The notes under the pieces: generated by a model
The model's input: the letters and a program-made list of their open reading frames with translations, nothing else
Databases searched by the model: none
Told to the model about the DNA's origin: nothing
Program-made: the position numbers and the translations under genes
In this document: positions 7,950 through 46,006 of the stretch, in pieces
Layout of the letters: each line of letters opens with the position of its first letter
Numbering within the stretch: position 1 is the first letter of the stretch
From: an uncultured Gammaproteobacteria bacterium
GTDB lineage: Bacteria; Patescibacteriota; Microgenomatia; UBA12405; JAHJSD01
DNA: 46,565 bases
Assembly: GCA_964505765.1 (NCBI GenBank)
Contig: CAZDJQ010000003.1
Span: 1-46,565 of the forward strand
Reading direction: 5' to 3'

Positions 7950-7972
7950 TTTAAATCCTTTCGGAATTTATT

Positions 7973-10570: not shown

Positions 10571-10606
10571 AGATGACTCAAATTGAGAAATTTTTATTTT
10601 TATATC

Positions 10607-10966
10607 TTAATCAATGAACTTTATAGAGCCATTATTTTTTATTTTGATCAGGTTTGATTTAACCCCATTTTTTTTTAGGGCATAAAAGAATGTTTTAAAC
10701 CCTTGCTTAAATTTTTTTTCTTGGCCAAATTCAATAACTCCCTTCAATACACTGCTATGGATAAAAAGAATTCTGTTGTATATATCGACAGCTATCGCTA
10801 TTTCTGCCTCCAGAATAGCTATGGCCGCTTTGGCCAATGCTTCAGCACCAATTTTCACATTCCCGGTTGCATAGGTATGTTCTATCAGCCCGCCCTTTTC
10901 GCTTCTTCTATAAATATTAAATACCTTTTCTATTTCAGCCTCATCCGGCCAATGGCCCTTTTTCAT
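10607..10966 (-). CDS. hypothetical protein
   Basis: 119-aa ORF in operon position between the YbjN-TM and WD40 genes. No family recognised. Confidence 0.45.
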   Translation of the reverse strand: MKKGHWPDEAEIEKVFNIYRRSEKGGLIEHTYATGNVKIGAEALAKAAIAILEAEIAIAVDIYNRILFIHSSVLKGVIEFGQEKKFKQGFKTFFYALKKNGVKSNLIKIKNNGSIKFID

Positions 10967-11063
10967 AATCTTATCTCCTTTCTAGTTTACAAAATATTAA
11001 AAATAATCCCTGACATGATACCCAGTCACCTGATTTTCATTGAACATACAGGCAAGCTTCTTA

Positions 11064-11963: not shown

Positions 11964-11972
11964 TAATAGATA

Positions 11973-16247: not shown

Positions 16248-16265
16248 GGTGATCCTCCGTTAAAT

Positions 16266-22097: not shown

Positions 22098-23471
22098 CTA
22101 ATACCGATAAAGATTAATTTTTCTTATGGATTGAGATTTGTCATTGCTTAATTTTATATCTTTCTCCACAAGCCGGTATCCATCTTTGTAAATATAGGCC
22201 TTTACATTTTGGTCTCTCGGAACATTAACAATAAAGAATCCGTCTTTATCGCTCTGGGCTACTTTAAAGAAAAATTCTCCATTTATGTAAGATTCAACAT
22301 CTTCTGAGATAATTTTTTGAGACAAATCTATTTCCAGCACCAGAGATATTTTTTCTTCCGAAACATTAAATCTATCGGAAATTTCTTTAATCGATAATCC
22401 CAGGTTGTTGAGTTCCTGAATAATATAGACAGCTTGAATTGCCTTTAATTTCTCATCAAGGTCTTTAATCTGTTTCAAAGTTCTATCCCGGCGGGCAACA
22501 ATAATTACTGCCGAAACCGGTTTATTGGAATGGCTTGATACAACTTTCCCGGTTAGGTAGGTATCGGTCAGTGTTTCGTCCATGTTGTAGTCACTTTGAA
22601 GCCACTTCAGTGGGATTTCGGGAGTCGAGAATCGATATTTCTGTTGAGCCACAGTAAAGACCTTTAAAGCCCAAGTTACAGGATAGATATACCCCATATC
22701 TGAACCGGCTATGGTAGGAGCTGATACTGCGGCAGGGATTCCGATATAAGCTTTCTCATTTAAAGCCGCCCCTCCGCTGCTCCCAGGCGACATAGCTGCA
22801 TTGGATTTGATAATACCGTTTAGTTCTTCATAGAGCTGGTCGTGGTAGTATCCCAGAAATTTCCCTTCCGTCATAGTCAAAGTAGCTCCTCCTACTCCCG
22901 GGTAACCTATAATAGTGATATCTTCATTGAGCTTCATTCCAAAAGGATTGCCGATATCAACATAAGAAAACTCTTTACTCACTGGATTTCCATCTTTGTC
23001 CTGGTCGATCAAAAAAAGGGCTGTATCCCTTTCCTCATCAAGAGCAATGGGAGTGGCTGAAAACTGCCATTCAGGCACTTTGAGAGGATCATTGTCTTTT
23101 AATCTGTAAACCATAATGGAAGGGCTGACCGGCTTGAATACAAAAAGAAGGTTATTTTCTTTGTCGTAGCGGATGTTATCTTCCATTCGGTAAATATGGT
23201 AATTGGTCAGGATTAGGCCATTTTTACTGATAATTGTTCCTGAACCCGTAGGCATCTTTTCCAATCCTTCCTTTATCAATTGGCCGTGCTTAATCACTTC
23301 GTCCAAATTCTTATTCATAATTGGATTTTTGTAGACAGATATTTTCATCAGATGCCCCAACCGAACAAAGGGCGTAAAATCAGAAGGAATATTATCATCG
23401 GGGCCCGAATAAGAAGGGAGGCTCAAGAAAATTAAAATAAGGACAGTTATTTTTATCTTTTTGCCGGTCAT
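22098..23471 (-). CDS. secreted trypsin-like (S1/PA clan) serine protease with a C-terminal beta-rich domain
   Basis: Signal peptide MTGKKIKITVLILIFLSLPSYS. Catalytic contexts are LTNYHIY (His), RDTALFLI (Asp) and SPGSSGGA (Ser). I chose the start at 23471, which has GAGGA 7 nt upstream. The ORF track start at 23522 would overlap the upstream gene by 41 nt. Confidence 0.78.
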   Translation of the reverse strand: MTGKKIKITVLILIFLSLPSYSGPDDNIPSDFTPFVRLGHLMKISVYKNPIMNKNLDEVIKHGQLIKEGLEKMPTGSGTIISKNGLILTNYHIYRMEDNIRYDKENNLLFVFKPVSPSIMVYRLKDNDPLKVPEWQFSATPIALDEERDTALFLIDQDKDGNPVSKEFSYVDIGNPFGMKLNEDITIIGYPGVGGATLTMTEGKFLGYYHDQLYEELNGIIKSNAAMSPGSSGGAALNEKAYIGIPAAVSAPTIAGSDMGYIYPVTWALKVFTVAQQKYRFSTPEIPLKWLQSDYNMDETLTDTYLTGKVVSSHSNKPVSAVIIVARRDRTLKQIKDLDEKLKAIQAVYIIQELNNLGLSIKEISDRFNVSEEKISLVLEIDLSQKIISEDVESYINGEFFFKVAQSDKDGFFIVNVPRDQNVKAYIYKDGYRLVEKDIKLSNDKSQSIRKINLYRY

Positions 23472-23481
23472 TTTCTTATCC

Positions 23482-24891
23482 TCATTCATTTTCCCATTTA
23501 AGGCTTTCCATAATTTTTTCATACATAGTCAGCCCCTCATCAAAGTCCCCAACTGAAGCGCGGTAGGTAAAAACAAATACATGGTTTTTGAAGGAAATGA
23601 TGTCCGCGTAAACTTTTTGCATTTGAGGAAATTCATGTCGGAGCGAATTCTTATTGGTTAAGTAGCTATAGGCAATTCTTTTCCCCTCCCTGCCTCCTGC
23701 TTTAATGTCCCTTACCATCAGGCTTTCGGTTTCAGTGGATTTTATATATTTTGTAAAATCCTGGATTTCATCTTGCGGCTCAATCGGATTGATCTCTACT
23801 GCAAAAGAAAATCCGGGTGAGGAATTCTCACCGGAAAAAAGTATTTTCGAATCTTCATCTAATAAAGCCGGAAAAGGAGTTATCAAAGAAGTTATCTCGG
23901 TTAAAGGAAATTGAGAAAAGGAGTGTGGATAGAAGAAAGAAATGCCATATTGGTCATTTTCATATTTTTCACCTTGCAGGCCTTTGGAGGAAAAAAGACA
24001 AGCTGAAATTAATAAAACAGTTGCAATCAGGACGGCCAGAAAATCAAATTTCGGAACAACCTGGATTTCTTCAAGAACATTTTTTTGGGTCAACTTTTTC
24101 ATTTTAAAATAGCAAAAAAGCAAAATGGTCAGGGCATAGAAAAGAGTGAGAAAAAAAGATAACCAGAAGGCATGTTCAAACCCTGAAAGAAAGATAAATT
24201 CATTAAGCAGGTAGTAAATTCCTAAAAGAATAATTCCGATCAATATCCCGAAAGAAGAAGAAACATCTGTTCCATGTTTTCTGAATTTTGCTTTTCCGAT
24301 AATATAACCCATCAATGAGCCCACACCGGAATAAATAAGAACATTGGTAGTAGCGGTGTAGGCAATAACAAACAGGGTGAAAGAGGGATGCGGCCATATA
24401 TCATAAATGCTTTTTACAAAAGCAAAGCCAGCCCCTACTATTGCTCCATAAACCATGCCGTCCACAATTTCGTCAAACTTTTCGAGCGGCAGGAAGCCGT
24501 AGCGAATAACAAGATAGAGCATTATACTGACCAGAGGAGCCATGACCAGAAATGAACCCAGCATAAAAAGAGAAGATGAAGCATACATCCATTCCTGAAT
24601 ACGAAAAATGATATGATATAAAGGAAAAGCGCCAAAACCGGCTGCTGCCATGCCGGCAATAAAAGATACCGCCAAATATGACAAAGGTTCAGGCTCTAAC
24701 CTGTCTTGAAGATAGAAAAATATAACCCAGATGATGCTCGGAATAAGTATTACGGCCACAAGCTGGATGAAACGCAGGCTTTCCCCGCTGCTCAGAGCAA
24801 TATTATAGCCCGCTAAATACACGGCCAACAAAAAAACAAATTGAAAAAATAAGTTGGTCTCCCCTGTCCTGAGGAAGCTTTTAAGCCTCAT
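23482..24891 (-). CDS. PrsW-family-like polytopic membrane protein with a C-terminal soluble domain; catalytic motifs not evident
   Basis: FYLQDRLEPEP and KFDEIVDGMVYGAIVGAGFAF match PrsW landmarks (YLKDQYDNEP, FDEHYDGIVYGASVSLGFA). I could not find the EExxK motif, and the expected His positions read N or L. Confidence 0.45.
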   Translation of the reverse strand: MRLKSFLRTGETNLFFQFVFLLAVYLAGYNIALSSGESLRFIQLVAVILIPSIIWVIFFYLQDRLEPEPLSYLAVSFIAGMAAAGFGAFPLYHIIFRIQEWMYASSSLFMLGSFLVMAPLVSIMLYLVIRYGFLPLEKFDEIVDGMVYGAIVGAGFAFVKSIYDIWPHPSFTLFVIAYTATTNVLIYSGVGSLMGYIIGKAKFRKHGTDVSSSFGILIGIILLGIYYLLNEFIFLSGFEHAFWLSFFLTLFYALTILLFCYFKMKKLTQKNVLEEIQVVPKFDFLAVLIATVLLISACLFSSKGLQGEKYENDQYGISFFYPHSFSQFPLTEITSLITPFPALLDEDSKILFSGENSSPGFSFAVEINPIEPQDEIQDFTKYIKSTETESLMVRDIKAGGREGKRIAYSYLTNKNSLRHEFPQMQKVYADIISFKNHVFVFTYRASVGDFDEGLTMYEKIMESLKWENE

Positions 24892-24953
24892 GGATTGTTC
24901 TCCTTAATTTTTTGAAAGGTTGCCGGAGGCTTTATGAATTTTCTCTTTTCACT

Positions 24954-25547
24954 TTATTTCTTGCGCTTTTCAATGATTGTGTCGATTAATCCGTATTTTA
25001 CTGCATCCTCTGGGGTTAGGTAAAAATCCCTGTCCGTATCCCGGGCAATAATCTCCATCGATTGGCCTGTGTGTTGAACCAATATTTCATTTATCCTCTT
25101 TTTTATCCTGTTCATCTCCTTGACCTGAATTTCCATGTCAGATGCCTGACCCTTTGCTCCTCCCAGAGGCTGGTGGATCAGCATCCTGGCGTTGGGAAAA
25201 GCCATCCTTTTCCCTTTTGTCCCTCCGGCCAGAAGAACAGCTCCCATTGAGGCTGCTTGACCTAAACAAATTGTAGCCACATCACAGGAAACATATTGCA
25301 TGGTGTCATAAATAGCCAGTCCTGCTGTAACTTCTCCCCCCGGGCTGTTTATATAGAAAAAGATGTCTTTATCAGGATCTTCAGATTCTAAATAAAAAAA
25401 CTGAGAAACAACAATATCGGCAACATCGTCGTTTATTATCCCCGTTAATAAGACAATTCGAGCCGACAGCAAGCGCGAATACAAATCAACTTGCCTGGCT
25501 CCCTGCGGTGTTTGCTCCACTACATAAGGAACTTTTATAAAAGCCAT
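24954..25547 (-). CDS. clpP: ATP-dependent Clp protease proteolytic subunit ClpP (paralog 2)
   Basis: 197 aa with [15 protein letters not shown] and [21 protein letters not shown]. By eye, most positions are identical to paralog 1. Confidence 0.93.
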
Positions 25548-25583
25548 GTTTAAGTCTCCTCCTAGATTAGATCACTCGCCTGC

Positions 25584-26015
25584 TCACTGTTCCCCATACT
25601 TCTTGCCTCCGAATTGCGCTTTAATTTCATCATCGTATTTGTCTGCTATGTAAGCAACTGACTTAACAGCAACTTCAAGTTCTTTCCGGTTAAGAAAATC
25701 TCCTAGCAGAATATGCTCAAACAGGATTGCCTGCCGGTCCGGGTCAAGCGAAAATTTACCAAATACTACTTTTATATTCTCATAAGCCAAAAACTTTGTC
25801 AGCTCCCCAGTTATTTGAGCCCCGCGATTAACTACTGACACAACTCTAACAATAGTTTGCTCCTTAATCCAATCTACTGGAATTATAAATACCCGGGCAC
25901 TTCCGGCCTGAAGAATGTAATTGTTACGGTCGTCCTTAAGATACGAGCCGAAAGATTCTTTGAGATATTTTTCTATTGTAGACCTTAATGTTTTTACGGC
26001 ATCAGACGCTGCCAT
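25584..26015 (-). CDS. YbjN-like domain protein, paralog 2
   Basis: 143 aa, colinear with 6889..7320 (FGKFSL...FEHILLGDFLNRKELEVAVKSVAYIADKYDDEIKAQFGG). It lies 36 nt upstream of clpP paralog 2. Confidence 0.65.
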   Translation of the reverse strand: MAASDAVKTLRSTIEKYLKESFGSYLKDDRNNYILQAGSARVFIIPVDWIKEQTIVRVVSVVNRGAQITGELTKFLAYENIKVVFGKFSLDPDRQAILFEHILLGDFLNRKELEVAVKSVAYIADKYDDEIKAQFGGKKYGEQ

Positions 26016-26191
26016 TTTTTCACCTCCTTTTTATTTTTTGCTTTTGCCATGTAAAATCAGCGGAAAATATCTTATTTGCTGATTAACCAGTGTTATAACC
26101 ATATCAAACCAGAATTAAACATAGCAAGTAATTTATTCGTTAAATTCCATAGTTAACATAAGTCTGTTCATTATTGTCCCTGTCTCTGCTT

Positions 26192-28795
26192 TTATTCTTC
26201 CCTCCTTATTTCCAGGCCTTCTTTGGCCAGGAATTCTGGTATCTTACGCACGGTGGCTCGATCCCACTCTTTGACGTCGTCAGGAAGCTCTGACCAGCTC
26301 ACAAGATAAGGACTCTTCTTCTTGGCAGTATCTTTTTTCTCTCCCCATCTCCACCCTTCAAGCAGTCTTTCGACATTCCACCGCCCATGCTCCATTTCTG
26401 CCAGAAACTCAACCTCGTCTTCGGTGAACGATAGTAACCTGATTTTTCGATCGGTTACTTTTTGCGCTGTACACCCAATATGACGAAGCTTCTCGAAAAT
26501 GTGGTCAGCCTGTTGAGCATTAGATTCCTTCAAATTAACCGGCAATTTCTCCCAGTCCGCCATCGCCGGATCGTCGGTCTTTAGACCATCCTTTTTGGTG
26601 CGTCGATACTCCTCATGAATTTCCTTAGCCAGTGTCTTCCTAATATCTTCCGCCAGTTTGGAAGCTCCCAAACCGATGAAAGCCCTAACCGTCATAGCAT
26701 CAGCAGGAAGAAGTGCCAGATTTTTCGAATCGACCCACTTTTCATCTTGAAGTAACTTGGCTGCCTCTCGTCCGCTTTCTTCTGCAACCCCCACTGTGGC
26801 TCCCAGAGCTAAGGCAATTCTGTATTCAATGGCTGAAATCATGCCCCCGTTAATACCGAAAACTTTAACCTGAGATGGATCAATGCCGGCAGAAATTATA
26901 TCAATCCAATTTTGCAAGGGCTCCATTGGACTAAAGCCGCTTCCCTCAGTTTTACGAAGTTCGCTGTACCTCCGGTCAACAGTGGCATCAGGGGGGATAA
27001 GTTTAGGAATATAACCAATCGTCCGGATTTTCTCCCGATATTTTTCTCCTGTTTCACCGACCAATCCGCTTATCCCTTGCTTTGTCCCTCCACTTATTAC
27101 CGTACCCTCATATTCTTTAAAACCTTCCTGCATTAAATGTCTGTAGGCTTTCATCTGTTCTTCAATAGATGGGTCACAGCCACCGGCCACAATAACAACA
27201 GGTCCTTGAATAGATTCGTACTGACTTAAGGTCAGCTCTCTTGCCTTCTCTATTGCTTCTTTAGCCTCTTTTGCTTTTTCTTTCTGTTTTTTAATTTTCT
27301 TTGTCTTCTCTTTTTCTTCTTTGCTTTCTTTGACTTCCTCAAGAGTTTCCTTGGCTTTTTTCTCAGCCCTTGATGCTTTACCAATTAAAAGCAATCGCCG
27401 GACCCATTCATACCCTGAGAGCTCATTGGCAACATTTTTGAGTCTTTCCAATGAGGCAAGTGCCGTCTCAATCATAAAGAGTGCCGAACTGATTTGGATG
27501 GCTTTTGCGTAGGCTTCAAGGCTTTTATAAGGCTTGTTTAATAAAAGATAAAACTTGCCCATCATATAAAAGGCCCATGGCAGATTAACGCCAACATCAG
27601 CCTGGTCATTACATCTCTGGATAGCTGAGGTAATCACAGGACTCAAGAGTGAGACTATGGATGTATTCCTGGCTTGAGAAATTTCTAAATCCAAATAGTT
27701 CTCCAATGGATACGGGTCTGACGGATCTAGTTCAAAAGCATGACGGTATAGCTTTCGCACCTTTTCTTCGTCGATTCCCTTCCAGGTGCCGGCCAGGGAA
27801 GCCAGGGCATCCACGTCTTCATTGGGGGGCTCGCATGCCTTCTCCAGATAGCGCTGGCCTTTCTTAAAGCGGCGGCCATTGGGTCTGTGTTTGTTCATTT
27901 TACAAAGAGCAACACCCAGGTCTCTCAGGATAGCCGGCTCCTCTGAATCACGGTACTTGGAAAGCACCTCATCGGCCTTCGGCCAGTCTCCAAGGGTAAT
28001 GGCTAACTTTCCGATGCGGCCGGCGATTTCCACGTTATCAGAATCGTGTTCCAGGATTATCTCCAGCAATTTTATTTCATCCTGCATTTGTTCTTCAGTC
28101 ATGTAAGCCCCGTAGCTTGCGGCGTAGGCGGATAACCCCTCTTTTATTTTAGAAAAGTTTTTATCTGCGCTTTCCAGCATTGCCGCTACCCCGGCAAATT
28201 CGCGCTCCCACTTTGAGGGTATTTGAAAAGAACTTTTATAAGCCAACACATGGGCCATATCCGCCCAAGCGTGCTCAAGAATGGTTCTCACCTGGACTTC
28301 AGCCCATGGATTAGGAAATTTCTTTTCATCCAACAGCACCGGCGGCACCTCTACCTTGACATCTTTATTGGGAAAAACCCCAGGCCTAAATTTGATAATA
28401 TAGTGCACAGAACGGTAACCAAACTCAGTGGGTTTTAGCCGTTGACTAACATCTATTGTGTTATCTTCATCAATCCGGAAATTATTCCTGATAAACTCAG
28501 ATATGGCTCTAACTTCATCAGCGGTATGAACAATGACTCGCCCACCACACAAGTCAGTCAACTGATTTACCGGATCTTTATACTTAGCCTTTTTCCGCTG
28601 ACATTTTTCGGCAAAACTGGCAATGGCCTTGGGCCTTGTTTGCACAATAGCCAAAGGGGCAAGCTTTTTTGCTACTTTTTTGAGAACCTGTTCCAAGACT
28701 TCAGCGTAGAGCTTATAATTATTGTAACGCCTTTTATATTCTTCAACCTGCTGGCGGGTCCATTCTTTGCATTTAATATCTGTTTTCTTAGTCAT
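26192..28795 (-). CDS. RelA/SpoT-type nucleotide pyrophosphokinase - TPR - SLOG-like - RyR-domain fusion protein
   Basis: - N-terminus: TRPKAIASFAEKCQRK...LTDLCGGRVIVHT...EFGYRSVHYIIKF...AEVQVRTILEHAWADMAH, the RelA_SpoT synthetase fold.
- Middle: TPR-like helices and a K/E coiled coil.
- Then: VVIVAGGCDPS...GTVISGGTKQGISGLVGE...GINGGMISAIEYRIALALG, a LOG/SLOG-type Rossmann domain.
- C-terminus: MEHGRWNVERLLEGWRWGEKKD..KKKSPYLVSWSELPDDVKEWDR, a RyR repeat. Confidence 0.8.
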   Translation of the reverse strand: MTKKTDIKCKEWTRQQVEEYKRRYNNYKLYAEVLEQVLKKVAKKLAPLAIVQTRPKAIASFAEKCQRKKAKYKDPVNQLTDLCGGRVIVHTADEVRAISEFIRNNFRIDEDNTIDVSQRLKPTEFGYRSVHYIIKFRPGVFPNKDVKVEVPPVLLDEKKFPNPWAEVQVRTILEHAWADMAHVLAYKSSFQIPSKWEREFAGVAAMLESADKNFSKIKEGLSAYAASYGAYMTEEQMQDEIKLLEIILEHDSDNVEIAGRIGKLAITLGDWPKADEVLSKYRDSEEPAILRDLGVALCKMNKHRPNGRRFKKGQRYLEKACEPPNEDVDALASLAGTWKGIDEEKVRKLYRHAFELDPSDPYPLENYLDLEISQARNTSIVSLLSPVITSAIQRCNDQADVGVNLPWAFYMMGKFYLLLNKPYKSLEAYAKAIQISSALFMIETALASLERLKNVANELSGYEWVRRLLLIGKASRAEKKAKETLEEVKESKEEKEKTKKIKKQKEKAKEAKEAIEKARELTLSQYESIQGPVVIVAGGCDPSIEEQMKAYRHLMQEGFKEYEGTVISGGTKQGISGLVGETGEKYREKIRTIGYIPKLIPPDATVDRRYSELRKTEGSGFSPMEPLQNWIDIISAGIDPSQVKVFGINGGMISAIEYRIALALGATVGVAEESGREAAKLLQDEKWVDSKNLALLPADAMTVRAFIGLGASKLAEDIRKTLAKEIHEEYRRTKKDGLKTDDPAMADWEKLPVNLKESNAQQADHIFEKLRHIGCTAQKVTDRKIRLLSFTEDEVEFLAEMEHGRWNVERLLEGWRWGEKKDTAKKKSPYLVSWSELPDDVKEWDRATVRKIPEFLAKEGLEIRREE

Positions 28796-28823
28796 GAAAA
28801 TTCCTCCGTTTTATTTTATTCAT

Positions 28824-31409
28824 CTATTTAAAAATCGATAACTTCCCTTTGCATGAAGGACATTCATCTAAACCTTCAGCGGTTTGAAAATAGATTGACT
28901 TTCCACAGTGGGGGCAGGTAAATACTTTGGCTGTCAAGCTTGCCCAGAATAATATTATGGCAAAAAGGATCAGCGGCCCACCCAACAGCCATAGCCATGG
29001 GGAGAGCCGGGTCAGTGCATAGCCGCCCCCAGCCAGCAGTACAGCCATCGCTGTAGTAAGCAGTTTTGTCCAGCTGACGCTTTTTCTCTCAGCTCGTGAA
29101 GGAGCTCTACGTACCTTTGGTTTCACCTCCGGTATTGGTGGACGGGGCTTTGGTGGGGAATCCGTGACCTGCTCAGCCTTTTCCCCAGTAGCGGTTTCTT
29201 TTTTGTTCGGCAGGATGGGTTCATTGTTCCTAACATTTGAAGTGACAACCTGATTTGTCTCCTGTTTAAACGGCTCTCTGTAATATCCGAAAATTTCAAG
29301 TATATATACGTTCCCTAAGTTGTCGCCCGCGGCAATCATATTTCCATTGTGATTAAAATGGCAACCTCGGATATATCCGAGAGCTGGATATATGTCTAAT
29401 AGTACTCCCGTCTCAGTATCCCAAAGTCGTATAGTGCTATCGGCACTTGTTGAGGCAATTATTTTACCATCAGGACTAAAAGCACAGGAGAGCACCACAT
29501 TTGTGTGTCCGTTAAGAATGGCCTTTTCTTCAACTCTTTGTGCGTCAAACAACCGAACCGTTTTGTCATGGGACAATATAACCATTTGTCCATCAGGGCT
29601 AAATGCACAGCAGTAGACATCACCTACGACATTTCTGCCGGTTTTAAATTTACCTGTCTGAGCATCCCATAGTCTTAATGCCCCACCATCAATCGCAGTG
29701 GCGAGGATTTTCCCATCCGGACTAAAAGCACAACATTTACTAACTCTGTTTTGTCCTTTAATAACAACCTTTTCCTCACCCGACCTAGAATTCCATAACC
29801 TAATTGTAAAATCTCTACTTGTGGATGCAATTAGCTTTCCATCGTGACTGAAGGCACATGATACAACCGAATCTTCATGTCCTTTGAAGACTGCTTTTTC
29901 ATCACCTGTTTGAGAATCCCAGAGCCTTATTGTTTCATCTTCGCTTGCTGATGCAAGTAATTTTCCGTCAGGATGAAAAACACAGGAATTAATGTCTCCC
30001 GTATGGCTTAAAAAGACAGCCTTTTCTTCTCCAGTTTGGGAATCCCAGATCCTGATGCTCTTATCATCACCTGCCGAGGCAAGTATTTTTCCGTCGGGTC
30101 TGAAGGAGCAGGAATTGATCCAATAGAAAGGGCCTTCGAGAGTAGCTTTATCTTCACTTCTTTGAGTATCCCATAGCCGCGCTGTAAAATCTTTACTTGC
30201 TGTGGCAATTATTTTACCATCAGTACTGAAAGCACAAGCGTTGACAGAGTGTATGTGACCTTTTAGGACGGTCTTTTCTTCACCGGTTTGGGAATCCCAT
30301 AACCTTACTCTCCAATCTTCACTTGCGGAAGCAACCATTTTGCCATCCGGACTAAAGGCACAGTATGTCACCCTGTTGGAATGGCCTCTGAGGGTTAAAA
30401 CCTTCTCATCAGTCTTGACATCCCAAAGTAATACATTTCTTGGATTAGAACCCATACAGACTACTTTGTTACCGTAAGGGGAATAACAGCCTGTTGCCTC
30501 ATAGGAAGAACCATATTTTAATTTGAATCCAGCCTTTCTTCTTTCTGTTTCAACATTCCAGAGCATCACAGCGTAGAGACCTACAGATACGATTGTCTTT
30601 CCATCGGAACTAAAGGCACAGAATATAACTGCCGAAGTGTCGCATTTGAGGATAATTAGTTCTTTACCATTTTCAGCATTCCATAACCTTACAGTCTTAT
30701 CACCTGCAGAAGCTAGCATTTTCCCATCGTGGCGAAATGCACATAATAAGACGGGGTCGGTGTGACCTTCAAGGACGGCCTTTGCTTCACCGGTTTGAGA
30801 ATCCCATAGCCGCGCTGTGCAATCTTTACTTGCTGTGGCAATTATTTTACCATCAGGGCTGAATGTACAATAATTAATAGTCTCAGTATGGCCTATGAGA
30901 ATAGTTCTTAATTGGCCCGTTTTAGCATTCCAAAGCCTTATGGTACAATCTTTACTTGCTGTGGCAATTATTTTACCATCAGGGCTGAAGGAACAAAAGT
31001 TTACATTTTGGGTGTGGCCTCTGAGAACCGCTTTTTCTCGGCCGGTTTTCACATCCCAGAGCCTTATTGTCTTATCAGCACTTGCTGTAGCAACAATATT
31101 TCCGTCGGGACAAAAATCACAATAGTTTACAATGTGGGTATGGCCCTTGAGGATCAATAAAAATGCCTCGGACTCACTAGTCCTGCATTTGTTGTGAAAC
31201 CAGGACTTGGAACCGGGAGAGATCATCCTCTCGAATTCTGGGGCTATCAAATTTGAAACCGGCCCTTCTTTCCCTTCTCCATCCACCCACTGCAGCCGGT
31301 TATACATCTGCTGCCAGAGAATATCAGGCCGCTCCCGCAGGTTGTGAAGCTCCTGGCCTAAAACTCTGGCAAAAGCCTCCAGGACTGTTTTTTGTTCAGA
31401 ATGTTTCAT
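28824..31409 (-). CDS. WD40-repeat protein with adaptor helix, two C-terminal TM helices and a CPxC..CPxC zinc ribbon (W3)
   Basis: 861 aa. The N-terminus carries ELHNLRERPDILWQQMYNRLQW, followed by about 14 WD40 repeats. The tail has two hydrophobic helices (LLTTAMAVLLAGGGYAL, LLGGPLILFAIILFWASL) and then FTCPHCGKSIYFQTAEGLDECPSCKG. Confidence 0.9.
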   Translation of the reverse strand: MKHSEQKTVLEAFARVLGQELHNLRERPDILWQQMYNRLQWVDGEGKEGPVSNLIAPEFERMISPGSKSWFHNKCRTSESEAFLLILKGHTHIVNYCDFCPDGNIVATASADKTIRLWDVKTGREKAVLRGHTQNVNFCSFSPDGKIIATASKDCTIRLWNAKTGQLRTILIGHTETINYCTFSPDGKIIATASKDCTARLWDSQTGEAKAVLEGHTDPVLLCAFRHDGKMLASAGDKTVRLWNAENGKELIILKCDTSAVIFCAFSSDGKTIVSVGLYAVMLWNVETERRKAGFKLKYGSSYEATGCYSPYGNKVVCMGSNPRNVLLWDVKTDEKVLTLRGHSNRVTYCAFSPDGKMVASASEDWRVRLWDSQTGEEKTVLKGHIHSVNACAFSTDGKIIATASKDFTARLWDTQRSEDKATLEGPFYWINSCSFRPDGKILASAGDDKSIRIWDSQTGEEKAVFLSHTGDINSCVFHPDGKLLASASEDETIRLWDSQTGDEKAVFKGHEDSVVSCAFSHDGKLIASTSRDFTIRLWNSRSGEEKVVIKGQNRVSKCCAFSPDGKILATAIDGGALRLWDAQTGKFKTGRNVVGDVYCCAFSPDGQMVILSHDKTVRLFDAQRVEEKAILNGHTNVVLSCAFSPDGKIIASTSADSTIRLWDTETGVLLDIYPALGYIRGCHFNHNGNMIAAGDNLGNVYILEIFGYYREPFKQETNQVVTSNVRNNEPILPNKKETATGEKAEQVTDSPPKPRPPIPEVKPKVRRAPSRAERKSVSWTKLLTTAMAVLLAGGGYALTRLSPWLWLLGGPLILFAIILFWASLTAKVFTCPHCGKSIYFQTAEGLDECPSCKGKLSIFK

Positions 31410-31439
31410 TTCTCGTCTTTGAAAAAGTTATCATTCATA

Positions 31440-32189
31440 TTAAGCAAGATCGGATTCCGGCAGCAGTTCCGTCGATTTGAACTGCACCCTGATTTTTCCA
31501 CTGTGACTCATCTTTCGCTTCACCCGGTTGGCTGAAATGAAAGATTGCTCCAGAATTGAAACAAACTCCAGCGGTTCTTCCTCTTCAACCCTGAGGATCC
31601 AGTCTGTACCGGGAGCGGGAGGCGTCGCCGTGTTCTTTTTCTGACCAATAACCGACAATTCTACTTTGTGTCCCCTGAACTCAAACTCCCAGAATGAACT
31701 GTTCGTACCCCTGTTGGAAACTGGCTTGACGCCCAGGCGTATCTGCAGCCACTCCAGGAGCCGATCCTCAAAGGCGTCTGCCACAGGGTCGCCAGAACGA
31801 ACAGCTCGAACAAGATTGTTCCTCAAAGACTCATCGGGCTCGTCGCCGTCCTTGTTGAAACCATGATTTTCCACCGGCTTTATCTCTTGGATCGTTTGGG
31901 GATTTACCGGAGAAATCCTGGCTTGCTTTGCCTTTTTCCGTTGGCGCCTTCGGAGCTGCCACCATGGACGCTTCTGCGATGATCCCTCTATCGTAACCTT
32001 GAATCCACAATTTGGACAATAAAAATTGTTTTTTTCGACACAGCGATCACAATGTATAAAACCACAATTTCCACATTTTGCATAATGCATGGCCATTGTG
32101 TCCGGATTTTCTTTCGCTACAGGATTCCCTCCCGGGATCTCCGAAAGGGAAATAAACCTGTTACATGACGGACAAATGTTAATACCCAT
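31440..32189 (-). CDS. zinc-ribbon protein with unknown C-terminal domain
   Basis: 249 aa. The N-terminus has ICPSCNRF, KCGNCGFIHCDRC and YCPNCGF (three to four CxxC pairs), then a basic linker and an unrecognised domain of about 130 aa. Confidence 0.55.
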   Translation of the reverse strand: MGINICPSCNRFISLSEIPGGNPVAKENPDTMAMHYAKCGNCGFIHCDRCVEKNNFYCPNCGFKVTIEGSSQKRPWWQLRRRQRKKAKQARISPVNPQTIQEIKPVENHGFNKDGDEPDESLRNNLVRAVRSGDPVADAFEDRLLEWLQIRLGVKPVSNRGTNSSFWEFEFRGHKVELSVIGQKKNTATPPAPGTDWILRVEEEEPLEFVSILEQSFISANRVKRKMSHSGKIRVQFKSTELLPESDLA

Positions 32190-32273
32190 TTTTTTGCCTC
32201 CTCAAGAGCCCGTTGAATAATGACTTATTAAATAAAATCGTTAAATCCAACGATTTCCCGGATAGAACGACTG

Positions 32274-32498
32274 TCAGAAGTGGTAAATAATCGCTCTCTC
32301 TCCGAGATGCTCCTTTTGAACATTAGGGTCTTCACATACAGCAATATCTACTGTCTTATCCGGATAATTGGCCTTGCGGTACTGTTCTGCCGGCAAAATC
32401 TGGTTTTCATGCCAGACCAGCATAACCACATCAGCCTCTCCTTTGTACATATCGCTTTTATTTAGATGATAAACCTCGTTGAATCCATATTTTTCCAT
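32274..32498 (-). CDS. small hypothetical protein
   Basis: 74-aa ORF in operon register (17 nt from the upstream gene). No family recognised. Confidence 0.4.
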   Translation of the reverse strand: MEKYGFNEVYHLNKSDMYKGEADVVMLVWHENQILPAEQYRKANYPDKTVDIAVCEDPNVQKEHLGERAIIYHF

Positions 32499-32515
32499 TT
32501 ATTCCTCCTGTCCAA

Positions 32516-34324: not shown

Positions 34325-34333
34325 TATTCTCCT

Positions 34334-42467: not shown

Positions 42468-43370
42468 TTATCTACCACTGCCTTGAGCCTTCATCCAGGC
42501 GCTACTACGTGCCTTATCGTCACGGGTCTCTTCTAAAGTTATCTTAGGCATAATAATTGTCACAATAATTCGCCCAAGGAATAAGCCGCCGAGGTACCCG
42601 ATCAAAGCCGAAAGCCACCACATCTCCCATAATTCATAGGTCCCTAAAAGCAGCGCAACACCAACAGCCGGATGGAAAGCAAAGAAGATAAAACGTTTGA
42701 TTTTGCTGGATTCTGTAATAAGATCGGGGATGGCTCTTGCCACAATAAACTGGGTCCAGAGAAAAACGAAAATGCCCAGCGCCCAGGACAAGGTCTGGGT
42801 GTAGGTGAATATTCCAGCTCCTATTGCAGACACAATACTAAGCACAGTAAAAACAGCCCTGATATTGCGGACACGGTTCCTTGGATCTTTCTTTGGCATA
42901 AATGCAGCAAATGGGTTAAGTGAACTGATATAGCGCCCCCAAGTATTTGCTTTGGTACTATGCAGTAGAACTGCCGGCGAGCCAAAAGTTTTAGCCAAAA
43001 TATCATTGTATCTATCAGCCACCTCTGCGACAGTTCCAACCGATCTTTCTAACTCCGGGTAATCCAGGTTTTCCAACTGTCTCTTTATCTGAAGGTCAAT
43101 CGTACCTGATCCCTCGTTTATGGCAAAGGCAGCGTCTTTAGTATCAGATAGATTCAATGTGAGGAGCTTCCTGAAAAGAGGGAGTAAATTCTCCTCAGGC
43201 AAATTAATTACCGGGGCGGAAACCAATAGCAAGTCTTTTTTTGGAACAGCAACTACTGCGACAGGTGCATTGCCTTTCTTAAGTAAGCATTTATTGTTTT
43301 TATCAAGCTGGCTATTGACCATCTTTTTTAAAAACTTGTTAATCTTGTCAATGCTCTTTTTTTCTGACAT
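42468..43370 (-). CDS. YbjN-like domain fused to a C-terminal multi-TM region, paralog 2
   Basis: 300 aa, colinear with 11064..11963 (NAPVAVVAVP...LPLFRKLLTLNLSDTKDAAFAINEGSGTIDLQIKRQLENLDYPELERSVGTVAEVADRYNDIL, followed by hydrophobic helices). Confidence 0.6.
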   Translation of the reverse strand: MSEKKSIDKINKFLKKMVNSQLDKNNKCLLKKGNAPVAVVAVPKKDLLLVSAPVINLPEENLLPLFRKLLTLNLSDTKDAAFAINEGSGTIDLQIKRQLENLDYPELERSVGTVAEVADRYNDILAKTFGSPAVLLHSTKANTWGRYISSLNPFAAFMPKKDPRNRVRNIRAVFTVLSIVSAIGAGIFTYTQTLSWALGIFVFLWTQFIVARAIPDLITESSKIKRFIFFAFHPAVGVALLLGTYELWEMWWLSALIGYLGGLFLGRIIVTIIMPKITLEETRDDKARSSAWMKAQGSGR

Positions 43371-43399
43371 ATATCACCTTTTTTATTGGTTTGTGTTAT

Positions 43400-46006
43400 T
43401 TACTTGAGATCACGGCCGCATTTTCTGCACCACTTATTTGAAGCAGGATTCACTGTCCCGCATCCTTTGCATATCTTTGTTTTTTTATCCGGTTCGGGTT
43501 TCGTCTTTGGCAATTCAGACGGCTCTTTATCCCGGGGACTTGGTTTTTTAATCACTTCCTTTTCCGGTATTTCTTTTTTTGGAACCGGGTCTTCTTTCTT
43601 ATTTGCCTCCTTTTTTGTTACTCTTTCCTCTTCTTTCTTAACTTTCTGCTTTCTGACCCGTTTTTTTTTAAATGTAATCGCACCATCCGACATTCTGAGT
43701 TTAATTACATCATGTTCGGAAATCTTGCCGCGGATTATTTCATTGGCCAGTGGCTCTACCACCAGATCTTCGATGGTCCGCCTTAAGGGGCGGGCACCCA
43801 TGGCCGGGTCGTAGCGGGCATTAACCAGGAAATCGATAACTTTATCTTCAGCTTCAACTTTGACTTTAACTCTCGATAACATTACTGAGGCAATATTTCT
43901 AAGATTATCTTTGCTTAGAGGATTAAAGATGACTACTTCATCAATCCGGTTCATAAACTCCGGGCTAAGCCTTCTTTTCAGGTCCTTTTCTATGTCCCCG
44001 CGAATATCCTTTATGGAAACTCCCTTCTCTTGCTCTTCTGTTGTTCTTAAATCTACTCCAAGAGGACGATATTCACTAATTCTGTTTGAGCCGATATTGG
44101 AAGTCATAATAACCACGGTGTTTCTGAAATTTACAGGTCTTCCCAAACCATCAGTTAAGCGGCCTTCTTCCATGATTTGAAGCAAGATGCGCAGGACTTC
44201 CGGATGGGCCTTTTCAATTTCATCAAAAAGGACAACTGAATACGGCTGTTTTTTAACTGCCTCTGTCAATTGTCCTCCCAGCTCTGAATTAACATAGCCG
44301 TGCGGTGAACCAAGCAGGCGGGAAATTGTATGTTTGTCATAGAATTCAGACATATCGACCTGGATTATGCGGTCTTCATCATCAAAAAGAATCTCTGCCA
44401 AGGTTTTAGCTAACTCCGTCTTGCCCACTCCTGTTGGGCCCAGAAAAAGAAATGAACCGATGGGCCTTTTGGGATTTCCGAGACCGGAACGGGATTTCCT
44501 GATAGATTGGCAAATAGCAAATACTGCTTCATCCTGACCGACTATTCTTTTTTTCATCAATTTCTCAAGGGAAATCAGCTTTTCACTTTCTTTTTCGGTG
44601 AGTTTACCGGAAGGAATTCCTGTCCAATCAGAAACTATCCGGGCTACATCTTCAAACGAGATTAAAATTGATTTGGTGGCTGGTGATGCTTCTTTTTTGC
44701 CCGAAAAGAGCTCTCTTCTTTCTTCCCTGGTAAGCTGACCGAAATCGCTTACTCCGTAATAATGCCTAAGCTTCTTTTGAGAACAAGCCTGGTCAATTAA
44801 ATCGATTGCCTTATCCGGTAAGCGTCTGTCGCCTATGTACCTTGTTGAAAGTTCAACCCCTGCTTTTAAAGCTTCGTCCAAGATTTTGACCCTATGAAAC
44901 TCTTCATATTTGGGTCTGAGTCCCAAGAGAATCTCATGGGTTTCATCTGTGGTCGGTTCGCCCACAAAGACCGGCTGAAAGCGCCGGGCCAGGGCCTTGT
45001 CTTTTTCAAAATGTCGGCGATATTCCTCATTGGTAGTAGCACCAATGCACTTTATTGTGCCGCGGGAAAGAGCCGGTTTTAAAATATCGGCTGCGCCCAT
45101 AGACACACCGCGAGCTCCTATCAAAGTGTGAATTTCATCAATAAAAATAATGAGATTCGGGTCCTTTTCCGCCTCTTTTATAAGACCCTGCAGTTTCTGC
45201 TCAAAATGGCCGTAATACTTGGCACCGGCAGCTACCACTGCCACCATTTCAACAGTTCGGATTCTTTTCCCTTTTAATTCAGGCGGGACTTTTTCTAAGA
45301 CAATAACTTGAGCCAAGCCTTCGACCACCGCTGTTTTACCCACACCTGCATCACCGACTAAAATGCAGTTATTTTTTCGTCTGCCAGTCAGAATTTTCAT
45401 CATGGCAAGAAGTTCGTCTTCGCGGCCTATTATTGGATCAAGCTTTCCTTTTTCGGCATCTGCGGTAAGGTCCCGGCCGAGATTTTTGAGTATGCCTGAG
45501 GTTTTATCAATTCCCGGTTGTTCGACCGTTTTTCTTTCTTCATAAAATTTCCTAGGCCAATCTCCCCAGCGCACCATCTCCTGAAAATTCTGAATCGCTT
45601 TGGCTATATCAGCGCCACTGCTTTTTAAAATACTAACAACCATACTGCTTTCATCATCTAAAATCCCCAGCAGAATATGAGTTGCCTCGACTTTAGATTG
45701 GCCGACTCTATTTGATTCAATTTTAGCCGTTTCTATGGCTTTCTTGGCTTCCGGTGAAAAAAAGACTTGAAATTCTTCCGGCTTTTTTGCAGATTTAAGC
45801 TTTTGGCGGATTTTTCGGGCTATCTCATCAATATCTATACCAATTTTTTGAAACTGACGACGGATATACACATCTTCAAGCTCAACCACTCCTAAAAAGA
45901 GATGTTCTGTCCCAATGTAGTCGTTATTTAACTCCTTGCAAATACGCTCAGCATAAGATATCGTGAGTTTGCCCGATTCACCAAGATTGCTTAAACTCAT
46001 TTTCAC
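43400..46006 (-). CDS. ClpC/ClpA-type double AAA+ unfoldase with full Clp_N domain and in-frame C-terminal RanBP2-like zinc finger, paralog 2
   Basis: 868 aa with two Clp_N repeats (YIGTEHLFLGV; EATHILLGIL). D1 has GDAGVGKTAVVEGLAQ and IIFIDEIHTL; D2 has GPTGVGKTELAKTLA and VVLFDEIEKAHP. A K/E/P-rich tail ends in CKGCGTVNPASNKWCRKCG. Confidence 0.92.
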   Translation of the reverse strand: MKMSLSNLGESGKLTISYAERICKELNNDYIGTEHLFLGVVELEDVYIRRQFQKIGIDIDEIARKIRQKLKSAKKPEEFQVFFSPEAKKAIETAKIESNRVGQSKVEATHILLGILDDESSMVVSILKSSGADIAKAIQNFQEMVRWGDWPRKFYEERKTVEQPGIDKTSGILKNLGRDLTADAEKGKLDPIIGREDELLAMMKILTGRRKNNCILVGDAGVGKTAVVEGLAQVIVLEKVPPELKGKRIRTVEMVAVVAAGAKYYGHFEQKLQGLIKEAEKDPNLIIFIDEIHTLIGARGVSMGAADILKPALSRGTIKCIGATTNEEYRRHFEKDKALARRFQPVFVGEPTTDETHEILLGLRPKYEEFHRVKILDEALKAGVELSTRYIGDRRLPDKAIDLIDQACSQKKLRHYYGVSDFGQLTREERRELFSGKKEASPATKSILISFEDVARIVSDWTGIPSGKLTEKESEKLISLEKLMKKRIVGQDEAVFAICQSIRKSRSGLGNPKRPIGSFLFLGPTGVGKTELAKTLAEILFDDEDRIIQVDMSEFYDKHTISRLLGSPHGYVNSELGGQLTEAVKKQPYSVVLFDEIEKAHPEVLRILLQIMEEGRLTDGLGRPVNFRNTVVIMTSNIGSNRISEYRPLGVDLRTTEEQEKGVSIKDIRGDIEKDLKRRLSPEFMNRIDEVVIFNPLSKDNLRNIASVMLSRVKVKVEAEDKVIDFLVNARYDPAMGARPLRRTIEDLVVEPLANEIIRGKISEHDVIKLRMSDGAITFKKKRVRKQKVKKEEERVTKKEANKKEDPVPKKEIPEKEVIKKPSPRDKEPSELPKTKPEPDKKTKICKGCGTVNPASNKWCRKCGRDLK

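Follow-up and report, generated by a model that had tools for sequence, protein, structure and literature searches.

Does a run of genes that combines WD40 repeat proteins, a NACHT NTPase, enzymes of nucleotide signaling and a dedicated ClpC-ClpP pair encode a single system, and if so, what might this system do? This question is raised by the contig CAZDJQ010000003.1 of the uncultured bacterial assembly GCA_964505765.1, the 46,565 nucleotides of which are referred to as the window. Between positions 46006 and 22098, the listing of open reading frames (ORFs) shows 17 consecutive genes on the minus strand, and not the 19 counted in an earlier sequence-only reading of the same DNA, the own list of which also comprises 17 items. 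That reading described the run as one functional unit. Comparison with related loci leads us to favor, with about even confidence, a composite anti-invader system of the abortive-infection type that would consist of three nested modules.

Mapping of all window proteins by tblastn onto 28 retrieved loci revealed a recurrent arrangement. In at least 10 independent contigs (the window, L002/12, L003+L007, L005/21, L008, L009/20, L010, L011, L013 and L014), three genes, which encode a NUDIX hydrolase, a membrane protein with RCK and RyR domains (RCK-RyR) and a RelA/SpoT-type protein with TPR, SLOG and RyR domains (Rel-SLOG-RyR), hereinafter the trio, are bracketed by a ClpC-like gene followed by a gene for a CesT-type chaperone with a membrane module (CesT-4TM) at one end, and by a gene for a TY-Chap1 chaperone followed by the ClpP gene at the other end. 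Wherever a locus extends far enough, TY-Chap1 immediately precedes ClpP, and CesT-4TM lies directly downstream of ClpC in all loci but L019 and L025, Clp-bracketed variants that lack it; the short contigs L022, L024 and L026 are pieces of the same arrangement. Inside the bracket, the gene order is shuffled between loci and the cargo is variable, comprising DUF4062-NACHT, one to four WD40 proteins, DUF6572 proteins, and a pair consisting of a 74-amino-acid (aa) protein and a Zn-ribbon protein. Given that the membership is conserved while the order is shuffled, the genes appear to be functionally linked, and the comparison provides good evidence that the bracket together with the trio constitutes a conserved functional unit. 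In line with the sequence-only reading, the homologs are syntenic in these contigs rather than scattered.

The unit is, however, not indivisible, as the trio also stands alone in other phyla. The Rel-SLOG-RyR protein has 701 homologs, over 120 of which are full length with 52-95% identity; they are spread over Bacteroidota, Planctomycetota, Chloroflexota, Acidobacteriota, Proteobacteria, Eisenbacteria and an Altiarchaeales bin. NUDIX, TrkA_N-RyR and Rel-RyR genes are present together in an Acidobacteriota locus (L029), with a TIR_2 gene beside them, and in a Planctomycetota locus (L031), where a 75-aa gene downstream shows a weak Pfam TIR_2 match; an Eisenbacteria locus (L030) has NUDIX and Rel-RyR next to TIR_2 genes and a fused DUF4062-NACHT-WD40 gene. 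None of these three loci contains Clp genes. The Clp-bracketed form, in turn, was found in only five of 185,579 species genomes (one genome per species), four of these loci belonging to Bacteroidales or Rikenellaceae bins and one being a short contig in an "archaeon" bin. Because the trio occurs in distant phyla without Clp genes, it represents the old core: the cluster is nested, with a widespread trio to which the Clp bracket was added in one small lineage. Beside the Acidobacteriota trio lies a gene for an additional 883-aa RyR-domain protein (L029, 3123-5774, minus strand).

The same facts lend themselves to another interpretation, namely that the Clp/chaperone/WD40 genes, DUF4062-NACHT and the trio are independent systems that are clustered in a defense island and co-transcribed but uncoupled. 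We consider this doubtful. Apart from the occurrence of the trio alone in other phyla, it draws on the fused DUF4062-NACHT-WD40 genes that stand alone (L008, L030), on the absence of NACHT from L005, L019 and L025, on the fluid gene order, and on a second copy of the core in the window (copy 1, described below), which retains intact Clp/chaperone/WD40 ORFs after the loss of the trio. Yet in every full-length locus, the trio lies between the ClpC end and the TY-Chap1-ClpP end, interleaved with the other genes, and because independent systems would be expected to form contiguous blocks, their independence is disfavored. Furthermore, every instance of CesT-4TM and TY-Chap1 that was examined sits in the Clp-bracket context, neither being seen outside it in any locus, and copy 1 shows further decay, its Zn ribbon being frameshifted and its Clp_N truncated. 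We thus keep to the composite system as the preferred interpretation.

The unit extends from ClpC to ClpP (24954-46006, about 21 kb). Its 3' boundary is placed at ClpP (24954) because the two genes that follow, for a PrsW-like and a trypsin-like protease, have no homolog in any other locus (tblastn, E<=1e-5); they had originally been included among the members of the run and are excluded here. A PrsW gene located upstream of ClpC in L003 is unrelated. The other features of the earlier description are borne out: each domain call was reproduced with Pfam (Table 1), the junctions 37099/37101, 34324/34334, 36664/36683, 28795/28824, 40451/40469 and 43370/43400 are all exact, and the packing is tight, most gaps being 1-36 nt. 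The few exceptions are gaps of 84 nt (32190-32273), 62 nt (24892-24953) and 176 nt (26016-26191), and the PrsW-like and trypsin-like genes overlap by 41 nt. The intergenic gaps of the 17-gene run contain no terminator-like site or hairpin on the minus strand. The sole good sigma-70-like site near a minus-strand gene start (10/12) is located upstream of the ClpC-like gene, at 46161-46132; overall, promoter-like matches do not exceed the shuffled-sequence expectation. The gap between Rel and TY-Chap1, 176 nt in the window, measures 83-322 nt in all nine other loci that reach this point (9/9), most other junctions being 10-40 nt. A structured RNA or riboswitch in this spacer or elsewhere was considered and rejected, given that an Rfam scan at the gathering threshold detected no known RNA, the 176-nt spacer included. 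The window sequence is independently backed by a 100% identical read-assembly contig (L001) and is also matched by approximately 97% identical Joint Genome Institute (JGI) contigs. In one related contig (L010; ENA ERZ25039502, contig_68441), ClpC, RCK-RyR and ClpP are each distributed over several ORFs, so that this locus has either been pseudogenized or was assembled from long reads with indel errors.

Table 1. Features of the window, listed from the ClpC end; TM, transmembrane helix.
Feature	Coordinates	Strand	Length	Family evidence	Remark
ClpC-like double-ring AAA+ unfoldase with K/E-rich linker and C-terminal Zn ribbon	43400..46006	-	868 aa	Pfam: Clp_N (2 stretches), AAA, AAA_lid_9, AAA_2, ClpB_D2-small	Likely true start: ATG at 46000, behind GAGGAG
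CesT-type chaperone with unnamed 4-5 helix transmembrane module (CesT-4TM)	42468..43370	-	300 aa	Pfam: CesT, CesT_Tir_1	
DUF6572 small protein, copy a	42127..42450	-		Pfam E 2.9e-11	
W5: WD40 protein with near-identical repeats and C-terminal Zn ribbon	40799..42109	-	436 aa	Pfam: WD40	
DUF6572 small protein, copy b	40469..40774	-		Pfam E 1.4e-11	
W4: double WD40 propeller, HEAT repeats and Zn ribbon	37101..40451	-	1116 aa	Pfam: WD40 (10 stretches), HEAT_2 E 5.8e-23	
MutT/NudG-like NUDIX hydrolase	36683..37099	-	138 aa from ATG	Pfam: NUDIX E 1.7e-19	
DUF4062 (TIR-like) and NACHT NTPase, without sensor repeats	34334..36664	-	776 aa	Pfam: DUF4062, NACHT, nSTAND1, HTH_NWD1	
RCK-RyR membrane protein: TM1, re-entrant LESG loop, TM2, RCK, RyR	32516..34324	-	602 aa	Pfam: TrkA_N E 3e-20, RyR E 7.5e-19	
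74-aa protein	32274..32498	-	74 aa	No family	Always paired with N-terminal Zn-ribbon part of next gene
Zn-ribbon protein	31440..32189	-	249 aa	No family match	
W3: 12-blade WD40, 2 transmembrane helices and Zn ribbon	28824..31409	-	861 aa	Pfam: WD40 (12 stretches)	Tail carries CPHC...CPSC
RelA/SpoT pyrophosphokinase, TPR, SLOG (LSDAT) and tandem RyR (Repeat12-like)	26192..28795	-	867 aa	Pfam: RelA_SpoT, TPR, LSDAT_prok (below cut-off), RyR	
AT-rich spacer before TY-Chap1	26016..26191	-	176 nt		Possible internal promoter or regulatory site
TY-Chap1/YbjN-type chaperone	25584..26015	-	143 aa	Pfam: TY-Chap1 E 1.2e-17	
Canonical ClpP peptidase, dedicated paralog	24954..25547	-	197 aa	Pfam: CLP_protease (PF00574) E 3e-80	
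PrsW-like membrane protease	23482..24891	-		Pfam: PrsW E 8.6e-7	Co-directional neighbor, membership unsupported
Secreted trypsin-like protease	22098..23522	-		Pfam: Trypsin_2 E 6e-15	Co-directional neighbor, membership unsupported
Further WD40 protein, same N-terminal segment as W3-W5, without Zn ribbon	19492..21537	-	681 aa		Outside the operon proper
TPR protein after the 681-aa WD40 gene	17957..19450	-	497 aa		Outside the operon proper
Second, degraded copy (copy 1): ClpC, CesT-4TM, 119-aa ORF, WD40-Zn-ribbon, stubs, TY-Chap1, ClpP	6248..14201	-			

The presence of copy 1 had been taken as an argument that the core is a functional unit. The copy exists, but as a decaying paralog that is 62-86% identical to the main cluster (copy 2) it makes this argument weak: the identities are 80% for ClpC, 62% for CesT-4TM, 65% for TY-Chap1 and 86% for ClpP. 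The copy-1 ClpC has 742 aa and a single Clp_N repeat, and its Zn ribbon, ICPSEDCGAVNDASAKWCRKCGCELK, is out of frame (encoded at 12123-11992, minus strand), with the shift located in the A-rich Lys linker; the cause could be a genuine frameshift or an error of assembly in a homopolymer. Between the WD40 gene and TY-Chap1, a seemingly "empty" gap of 650 nt contains two stubs. The 5' stub of NUDIX, consisting of the first ~18 codons followed by stops (7896-7949, minus strand), lies directly after the WD40 gene, and the last 15 codons of an RyR-domain protein, PSFLVKVGLEIRRQP*, are found upstream of TY-Chap1 (7494-7541, minus strand). Because the NUDIX 5' stub and the RyR 3' stub remain, the trio has been deleted from copy 1. 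Five copy-1 ORFs are still intact; nevertheless, given the two stubs and the out-of-frame Zn ribbon, we rejected the possibility that copy 1 is a minimal functional unit. Because several foreign loci resemble copy 1 more than copy 2, the two copies are either old paralogs or separate acquisitions. Beside copy 1, a gene on the plus strand (4943-6025) encodes an effector-type SLATT_1/DUF4231 protein with two transmembrane helices, a further hallmark of conflict systems on this contig.

Of the three members of the trio, the Rel-SLOG-RyR protein has the most elaborate architecture. Its DxxGxR, GYRSxH and EVQVRT motifs are intact and its catalytic domain is closest to small alarmone synthetases. 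In the AlphaFold2 (AF2) model, with a predicted local distance difference test (pLDDT) score of 86, a synthetase fold is followed by a TPR solenoid and a Rossmann-like domain, and the C-terminal unit is Repeat12-like. The N-terminal part matches the small alarmone synthetase 5dec (TM-score 0.77), CapRel also being among the matches, and the modeled C-terminal part superposes on the whole Repeat12 of human RyR3 with ADP over 186 columns. In the window protein, the SLOG domain (LSDAT_prok) scores 22.3 bits versus the Pfam cut-off of 25.4; the same profile matches 24 of 30 members of the Rel family, with the best E-value of 2.3e-8, and the model contains an alternating beta/alpha core at residues 533-710.

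The RCK-RyR protein has the signature YRxxQLxxLESGxxxGxxPWxLxxAR between two hydrophobic helices, which is conserved in nine homologs. The predicted topology resembles that of P-loop channels, with a loop that looks re-entrant and a non-canonical filter, and we regard this protein as a putative ligand-gated cation channel. The third member, the NUDIX hydrolase, has an intact Nudix box (GX5EX7REUXEEXGU); among the NCBIfam models, NudG, MutT and NudI come nearest to it, although none of the three reaches its cut-off. It is encoded in nearly every related locus, not always adjacent to the Rel gene. MutT and NudG can hydrolyze (p)ppGpp.

A possible ligand of the RyR domains is suggested by phage proteins with an RyR domain (PF02026), which bind or cleave 2'/3' cyclic ADP-ribose (cADPR) by means of the residues H75, W78, H100 and D117 of RyDEP, a pocket that is conserved across the RyR family (PMC13232231). 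Compared by residue spacing, the Rel RyR domain (EMEHGRW...KEWDR) presents H, W(+3) and D(+42), the same as H75/W78/D117 of RyDEP, and the channel RyR domain (EMEHERW...KEYDR) presents H, W(+3) and D(+43); these three residues are invariant or nearly so in 30 homologs. The notion that the RyR domains are single repeats that would have to form heterodimers was dropped, as each of the two proteins contains a tandem Repeat12-like unit, according to both model and sequence.

The DUF4062-NACHT protein has intact Walker A and B motifs (GEGGSGKS and LVLFLDSLD) and shares 50% identity with the first 761 residues of a 1543-aa protein in which DUF4062, NACHT and WD40 are fused, ending where the WD40 part of the latter begins. 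The one-polypeptide layout of NACHT effector-sensor proteins is thus not seen here, with the sensor repeats located in separate genes. DUF4062 is the only TIR-related domain in the window, where Pfam detects no canonical TIR (PF13676). It has been characterized as a TIR-like NADase that converts NAD+ to ADP-ribose (ADPR) in phage defense, and precedes NACHT-WD40 in TEP1 and NWD1 (10.64898/2026.05.01.722283); a DUF4062 defense family has also been named (10.64898/2026.06.25.731849). A DUF4062 or TIR_2 gene is present within the retrieved span in 12 of the 15 informative loci.

The WD40 proteins W3, W4 and W5 have in common an 85-aa N-terminal segment that is conserved and belongs to no known family. 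In W5, the repeat region (41215-41864) has a period of 126 nt and 83-86% mutual DNA identity, and the differences among the five 42-aa units fall almost entirely on the GH-xxx-V-x-S positions, with amino-acid changes limited to a few surface sites. This pattern is typical of rapidly diversifying receptor repeats and suggests concerted evolution or recombination-driven diversification. A Lys/Glu-rich linker with a Zn-ribbon tail is common to W4, W5, the copy-1 WD40 protein and the ClpC-like protein. Two further small genes of the cargo have no relatives among known families: neither the 74-aa protein nor the 249-aa Zn-ribbon protein has a match in Pfam, NCBIfam or PADLOC. Homologs of the former (74-77% identical) directly precede a 72-aa Zn-ribbon gene in L002, L011, L013 and L014. 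The latter is split elsewhere, its N-terminal 72 aa and C-terminal 190 aa being separate genes; in L013, residues 1-72 and 60-249 are encoded by two genes.

For the ClpC-like protein at the other end of the unit from ClpP, the best PDB match is Bacillus subtilis ClpC (3j3s, E 1.5e-191, full length). The Walker A/B motifs are intact in both rings (GDAGVGKT/IIFIDEIH and GPTGVGKT/VVLFDEIE), the pore loops are KYY and GYVN, and the M-domain is ~20 aa shorter than in B. subtilis ClpC. Where B. subtilis ClpC has the docking tripeptide VGF, the window protein has LGV, its copy-1 counterpart RGV, and homologs have VGV or, shifted by two residues, MGF. The C-terminal tail (CxxC...CxxC) is a Zn ribbon that was found in the ClpC homologs of 9 of 10 loci. 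The ClpP (best PDB match 8r04, E 5e-76; NCBIfam NF001368, 305.6 bits versus a cut-off of 249) retains the catalytic Ser (AASMG), His (IHQP) and Asp (DTDRD), and is 82-92% identical across loci. Given that the Walker, pore-loop, catalytic-triad, Rel and Nudix-box motifs are intact, the ClpC-like, ClpP, Rel, Nudix and NACHT enzymes all look competent.

The Clp genes are accompanied by three kinds of small partners. The AF2 model of CesT-4TM (pLDDT 70) shows an N-terminal domain with the alpha-beta-beta-beta-alpha-beta-beta-alpha fold of class I chaperones of type III secretion systems (T3SS), followed by 4-5 membrane helices; in Foldseek comparisons, the N-terminal domain matches ExsC, SicP, CesT and SycE with TM-scores up to 0.78 and E-values down to 3e-7, and the transmembrane module has no structural match in PDB. 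In a search of 5.8 billion proteins, the CesT-4TM family comprises only 39 clusters at 90% identity, all of ~300 aa, and the TY-Chap1 family 43 clusters, nearly all of exactly 143 aa. A profile search of 1.84 billion representatives identified the membrane module of CesT-4TM as an independent unnamed domain, with 408 matches at E <= 0.001, most of those listed matching the module only. Elsewhere the module occurs alone (~150-170 aa) or fused to TY-Chap1, WD40 or TIR_2; its relatives include P0211, P0222, P0242, P0272 and P0287, and it contains the conserved polar motifs ARxIPDLITD, FFALHP, WWLSALIGY and EExRDDQER. We consider it a candidate new domain of conflict systems, serving as an effector or an anchor in the membrane. 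TY-Chap1 itself was first defined in ADPr-centered conflict neighborhoods (PMC9503650). The two DUF6572 copies are 98% identical to each other, and in type VII secretion (T7SS) the EssC ATPase is bound by DUF6572, which acts there as an adaptor (PMC12558993). Because no T3SS gene was found in the window or in any related locus, the CesT/YbjN-fold proteins would work in the manner of T3SS chaperones and are not T3SS components.

These properties allow for a scheme in which ClpC-ClpP is the executioner, that is, a signal or chaperone-borne WD40 sensors would switch on the unfoldase-protease, which would then destroy invader or host proteins or extract membrane proteins via CesT-4TM, with the Rel/channel arm being auxiliary. 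Uncontrolled ClpP proteolysis is lethal, as illustrated by the acyldepsipeptide antibiotics, and in addition to the apparent catalytic competence of ClpC and ClpP, this scheme accounts for the Zn-ribbon tail that ClpC shares with the WD40 sensors, for the presence of T3SS-type chaperones and DUF6572, which normally hand clients to hexameric ATPases, and for the retention in copy 1 of exactly ClpC, CesT-4TM, WD40-Zn-ribbon, TY-Chap1 and ClpP. It is nonetheless improbable, considering that the trio is ancient, far more widespread and functions without Clp elsewhere, and that copy 1 is decaying.

The composite anti-invader system that we favor starts from observed features of the cluster, namely which genes and domains it contains, that the catalytic motifs are intact, that synteny is conserved and that the distribution is modular. 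Module A would be the widespread trio, with the Rel enzyme carrying TPR, SLOG and RyR sensors, the two-helix RCK-RyR channel and the MutT-like Nudix. Module B would be a NOD-like receptor (NLR), with DUF4062, a TIR-like NADase, joined to NACHT and with the hypervariable WD40 sensors encoded by separate genes; WD40 repeats of this kind are a probable signature of immune receptors. Module C, which is present in the small lineage only, would comprise the ClpC-like protein and ClpP, with CesT-4TM after ClpC, TY-Chap1 before ClpP, and the DUF6572 adaptors. In the proposed sequence of events, an invader protein would be bound by the WD40 proteins, the NACHT module would oligomerize, and DUF4062 would turn NAD+ into an ADP-ribose-type signal, a ligand for the RyR and SLOG pockets that the channel and the Rel enzyme provide. 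The channel would then dissipate ion gradients, and Rel would make an alarmone or pyrophosphorylate tRNA, halting growth, whereas the Nudix hydrolase would remove the product or the signal and so set a threshold or a reset. This signal flow is proposed on the strength of the precedents for DUF4062 as an NADase, for RyR binding of cADPR and for the sensing of TIR products by SLOG domains in Thoeris, and we infer every functional link between the parts of the cluster.

For module C, we envisage that ClpC-ClpP, guided by the chaperones and the Zn ribbons, would set the lifetime of sensors or effectors. We favor the possibility that the chaperones deliver the WD40 sensors or another protein of the operon to ClpC-ClpP as a licensing or reset step, because, in secretion systems, CesT, TY-Chap1 and DUF6572 proteins hand partly unfolded clients to hexameric ATPases, and because the WD40 proteins share the 85-aa segment, have a Zn-ribbon tail in common with ClpC, and occur with the Clp module also in loci that lack NACHT. 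A more specific version seems to us rather unlikely: the chaperones would feed the WD40-Zn-ribbon sensors to ClpC-ClpP, this "functional degradation" would license the NADase, and the product would gate both the channel and Rel; under this version, the trio would be a new phylum-spanning effector set for TIR-type signaling, as well as a case in bacteria of RyR Repeat12 and TRPM SLOG/Nudix ligand modules already regulating an ion channel. As for the original suggestion that the parts of the locus are familiar from conflict or programmed-death systems, the presence of conflict-system domains is confirmed, whereas a role of the locus in conflict or programmed death is still a matter of interpretation.

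Several observations weigh against the composite system. All sources of the cluster are metagenome contigs, and it is the spacing of the genes that is consistent with a single operon of 17 genes. PADLOC, run on 10 of the 17 proteins, returned single-gene candidates only: PDC-S07 (NUDIX, E 1e-28), PDC-S33 (Rel) and PDC-M37B/DolB (AAA+). The NUDIX protein is MutT/NudG-like rather than ADPR-pyrophosphatase-like; at the position +25 of the RyR pocket, the window proteins have Ser/Thr compared with H100 of RyDEP, a His that binds phosphate; and the docking tripeptide of ClpC, while mostly retaining the hydrophobic-Gly-hydrophobic pattern, is variable and non-canonical compared with [LIV]-G-[FL]. 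WD40 proteins accompany the Clp module even without NACHT (L005, L019, L025 and copy 1), and no TIR or DUF4062 gene is within reach in the Clp-bracketed loci L005/21, L019 and L025. A "split NLR" was also sought by sequence, but BLAST comparison of the WD40 N-termini with a fused NACHT-WD40 protein gave only a weak collinear match (E 0.2). Because a profile of 20 WD40 N-termini likewise found no significant match in the fused NACHT-WD40 proteins, it is the gene architecture that points to a split receptor composed of NACHT and separate WD40 proteins.

The genes located between the two copies (14511-17360) encode TerB (plus strand), a BK/Slo-like RCK channel and a Na+/Ca2+ exchanger (both minus strand). 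Downstream of ClpP in L008, L009 and L020, TerB and the RCK channel recur with 71-79% identity, and L022 likewise has the RCK channel; the cluster may thus be connected with the handling of cations or Ca2+. These neighbors can also be accommodated by a physiological explanation, namely a stress or developmental circuit of ClpCP proteolysis, an alarmone synthetase and cation/Ca2+ flux in organisms of complex lifestyle, all the more so as Rel enzymes, ClpCP with adaptors, RCK channels and Nudix hydrolases have housekeeping roles and no phage or plasmid association was found (IMG/VR, plasmid and phage records). Such a circuit is quite improbable in view of the patchy and rare distribution of the Clp-bracketed form, the presence of TIR-like NADase and NACHT domains, the hypervariable and highly similar WD40 repeats, the decaying paralogous copy on one contig, and SLATT, PIN and TIR neighbors, a combination that marks conflict systems rather than core physiology. 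Indeed, the surroundings resemble a defense island, with SLATT_1, TerB and further NACHT, TIR and PIN genes, which is more in keeping with the composite anti-invader system.

A phage or plasmid origin of the cluster is unsupported: IMG/VR contains no relatives of TY-Chap1 or Rel-SLOG-RyR, only isolated Rel domains are found on plasmids, and the RyR domain has only three weak matches in phage records. Horizontal transfer is likely. The closest genome-bin relatives are Bacteroidales metagenome-assembled genomes (MAGs), at ~70% identity, and a TY-Chap1 protein labeled 'Firmicutes bacterium ML8_F2' is 97% identical to that of the window. Strong Shine-Dalgarno motifs (AGGAGG, GGAGG), which are unusual for Bacteroidota, precede most genes, so that a host from this phylum is doubtful. 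At one end of the contig, the regions 35-2610 (minus strand) and 2814-4768 (plus strand) contain unannotated ORFs of 266, 149, 337, 278, 157 and 111 aa, of which those of 266, 149, 337 and 278 aa have no significant match in a Pfam scan; with a G+C content of 0.34-0.38 versus 0.43-0.47 in the operon, this may be a separately acquired segment. At the other end (46380-46565, plus strand), the translation includes ...GIYRPRHPERTVLYRVLFYYFEQFLAEYESRFEREYGFLR, which we take to resemble the N-terminus of IS91-family transposases, and a repeat element at this site may be the cause of the contig end.

How, then, does the cluster compare with known systems? As had been anticipated from the sequence, PADLOC v2 found no named defense system among the 10 of the 17 proteins that were searched, and with the exception of ClpP, NCBIfam gave only generic matches below threshold. 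No description of the Clp-bracketed operon or of the trio was found in open-access papers and preprints, and ClpP, RyR, CesT and DUF4062 are absent from the two broad surveys that deal with NTP-dependent conflict systems. Judging from these comparisons, the cluster as a whole is a member of no known system, and both the private Clp-bracketed arrangement and the trio are apparently undescribed.

The closest functional analogy is with Thoeris, which likewise pairs a TIR-type NAD+-consuming enzyme with SLOG-sensor effectors. SLOG domains sense TIR products in Thoeris. RyR domains, too, recognize the cADPR signals of Thoeris (PMC13232231). In contrast to Thoeris, the cluster contains no ThsA or ThsB and matches no Thoeris model in PADLOC (10/17 proteins), DUF4062 is joined to NACHT in one protein, a Rel pyrophosphokinase and an RCK channel take the place of the SIR2 or TM-Macro effectors, and Nudix, ClpCP and chaperone layers are added. 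If the proposed signal flow is correct, Nudix, RCK-RyR and Rel-SLOG-RyR would constitute a new family of TIR-signal effectors, with hundreds of homologs in many phyla, and would provide the bacterial host side of the RyR story, so far known only from phage counter-defense.

Among the NACHT/NLR proteins, including bacterial Avs-type STAND proteins and the eukaryotic NWD1, TEP1 and NPHP3, the order DUF4062-NACHT-(winged-helix domain, WHD) is the same as in NWD1 and TEP1, the Walker A/B motifs are intact, the WD40 sensors consist of highly similar units, and a fused 1543-aa homolog exists in related contigs. The difference is that NACHT ends before the repeats, which are found in 3-5 separate WD40 proteins with an N-terminal segment of their own and a Zn-ribbon or transmembrane tail. 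With the toxic small alarmone synthetases (toxSAS) and CapRel, the Rel protein shares the catalytic fold and motifs, the closest structures being SAS1/RelQ, RelP and CapRel, and the neighboring hydrolase could neutralize it in a similar manner; it is, however, an 867-aa multidomain TPR/SLOG/RyR protein and not a small toxin with a pseudo-zinc-finger domain (pseudo-ZFD) or an antitoxin, its partner is a Nudix and not a small alarmone hydrolase, and the layout of a small toxin with an adjacent antitoxin is not seen.

The Clp part resembles ClpC-ClpP (with MecA or McsB) and ClpE-ClpP in combining a class I AAA+ protein closest to ClpC, a canonical ClpP and small dedicated partners. Like ClpE and ClpX, the unfoldase carries a Zn-binding module, and as in toxin-antitoxin-chaperone (TAC) systems, a chaperone and proteolysis meet in a conflict setting. 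It differs from ClpC-ClpP in the C-terminal Zn ribbon, the shorter M-domain and the non-canonical docking tripeptide, and from both ClpC-ClpP and TAC in that chaperones of the T3SS CesT/YbjN type, one with a membrane anchor, replace MecA or SecB as partners, and that the genes are private to the operon. Should the composite system be real, it would be, as far as we found, the first immune system with its own ATP-dependent unfoldase-protease, making regulated proteolysis in bacterial immunity directly testable.

Finally, the cluster uses the vocabulary of TRPM2 and the ryanodine receptors, that is, SLOG (LSDAT, 'SLOG in TRPM'), Nudix, RyR Repeat12 and a cation channel, but distributes it over three prokaryotic proteins with a two-helix RCK channel and no homology to the TRP or RyR pore. 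If the trio indeed functions as proposed, the fact that prokaryotes combine these four elements would bear on the origin of the gating modules of TRPM2 and the ryanodine receptors.

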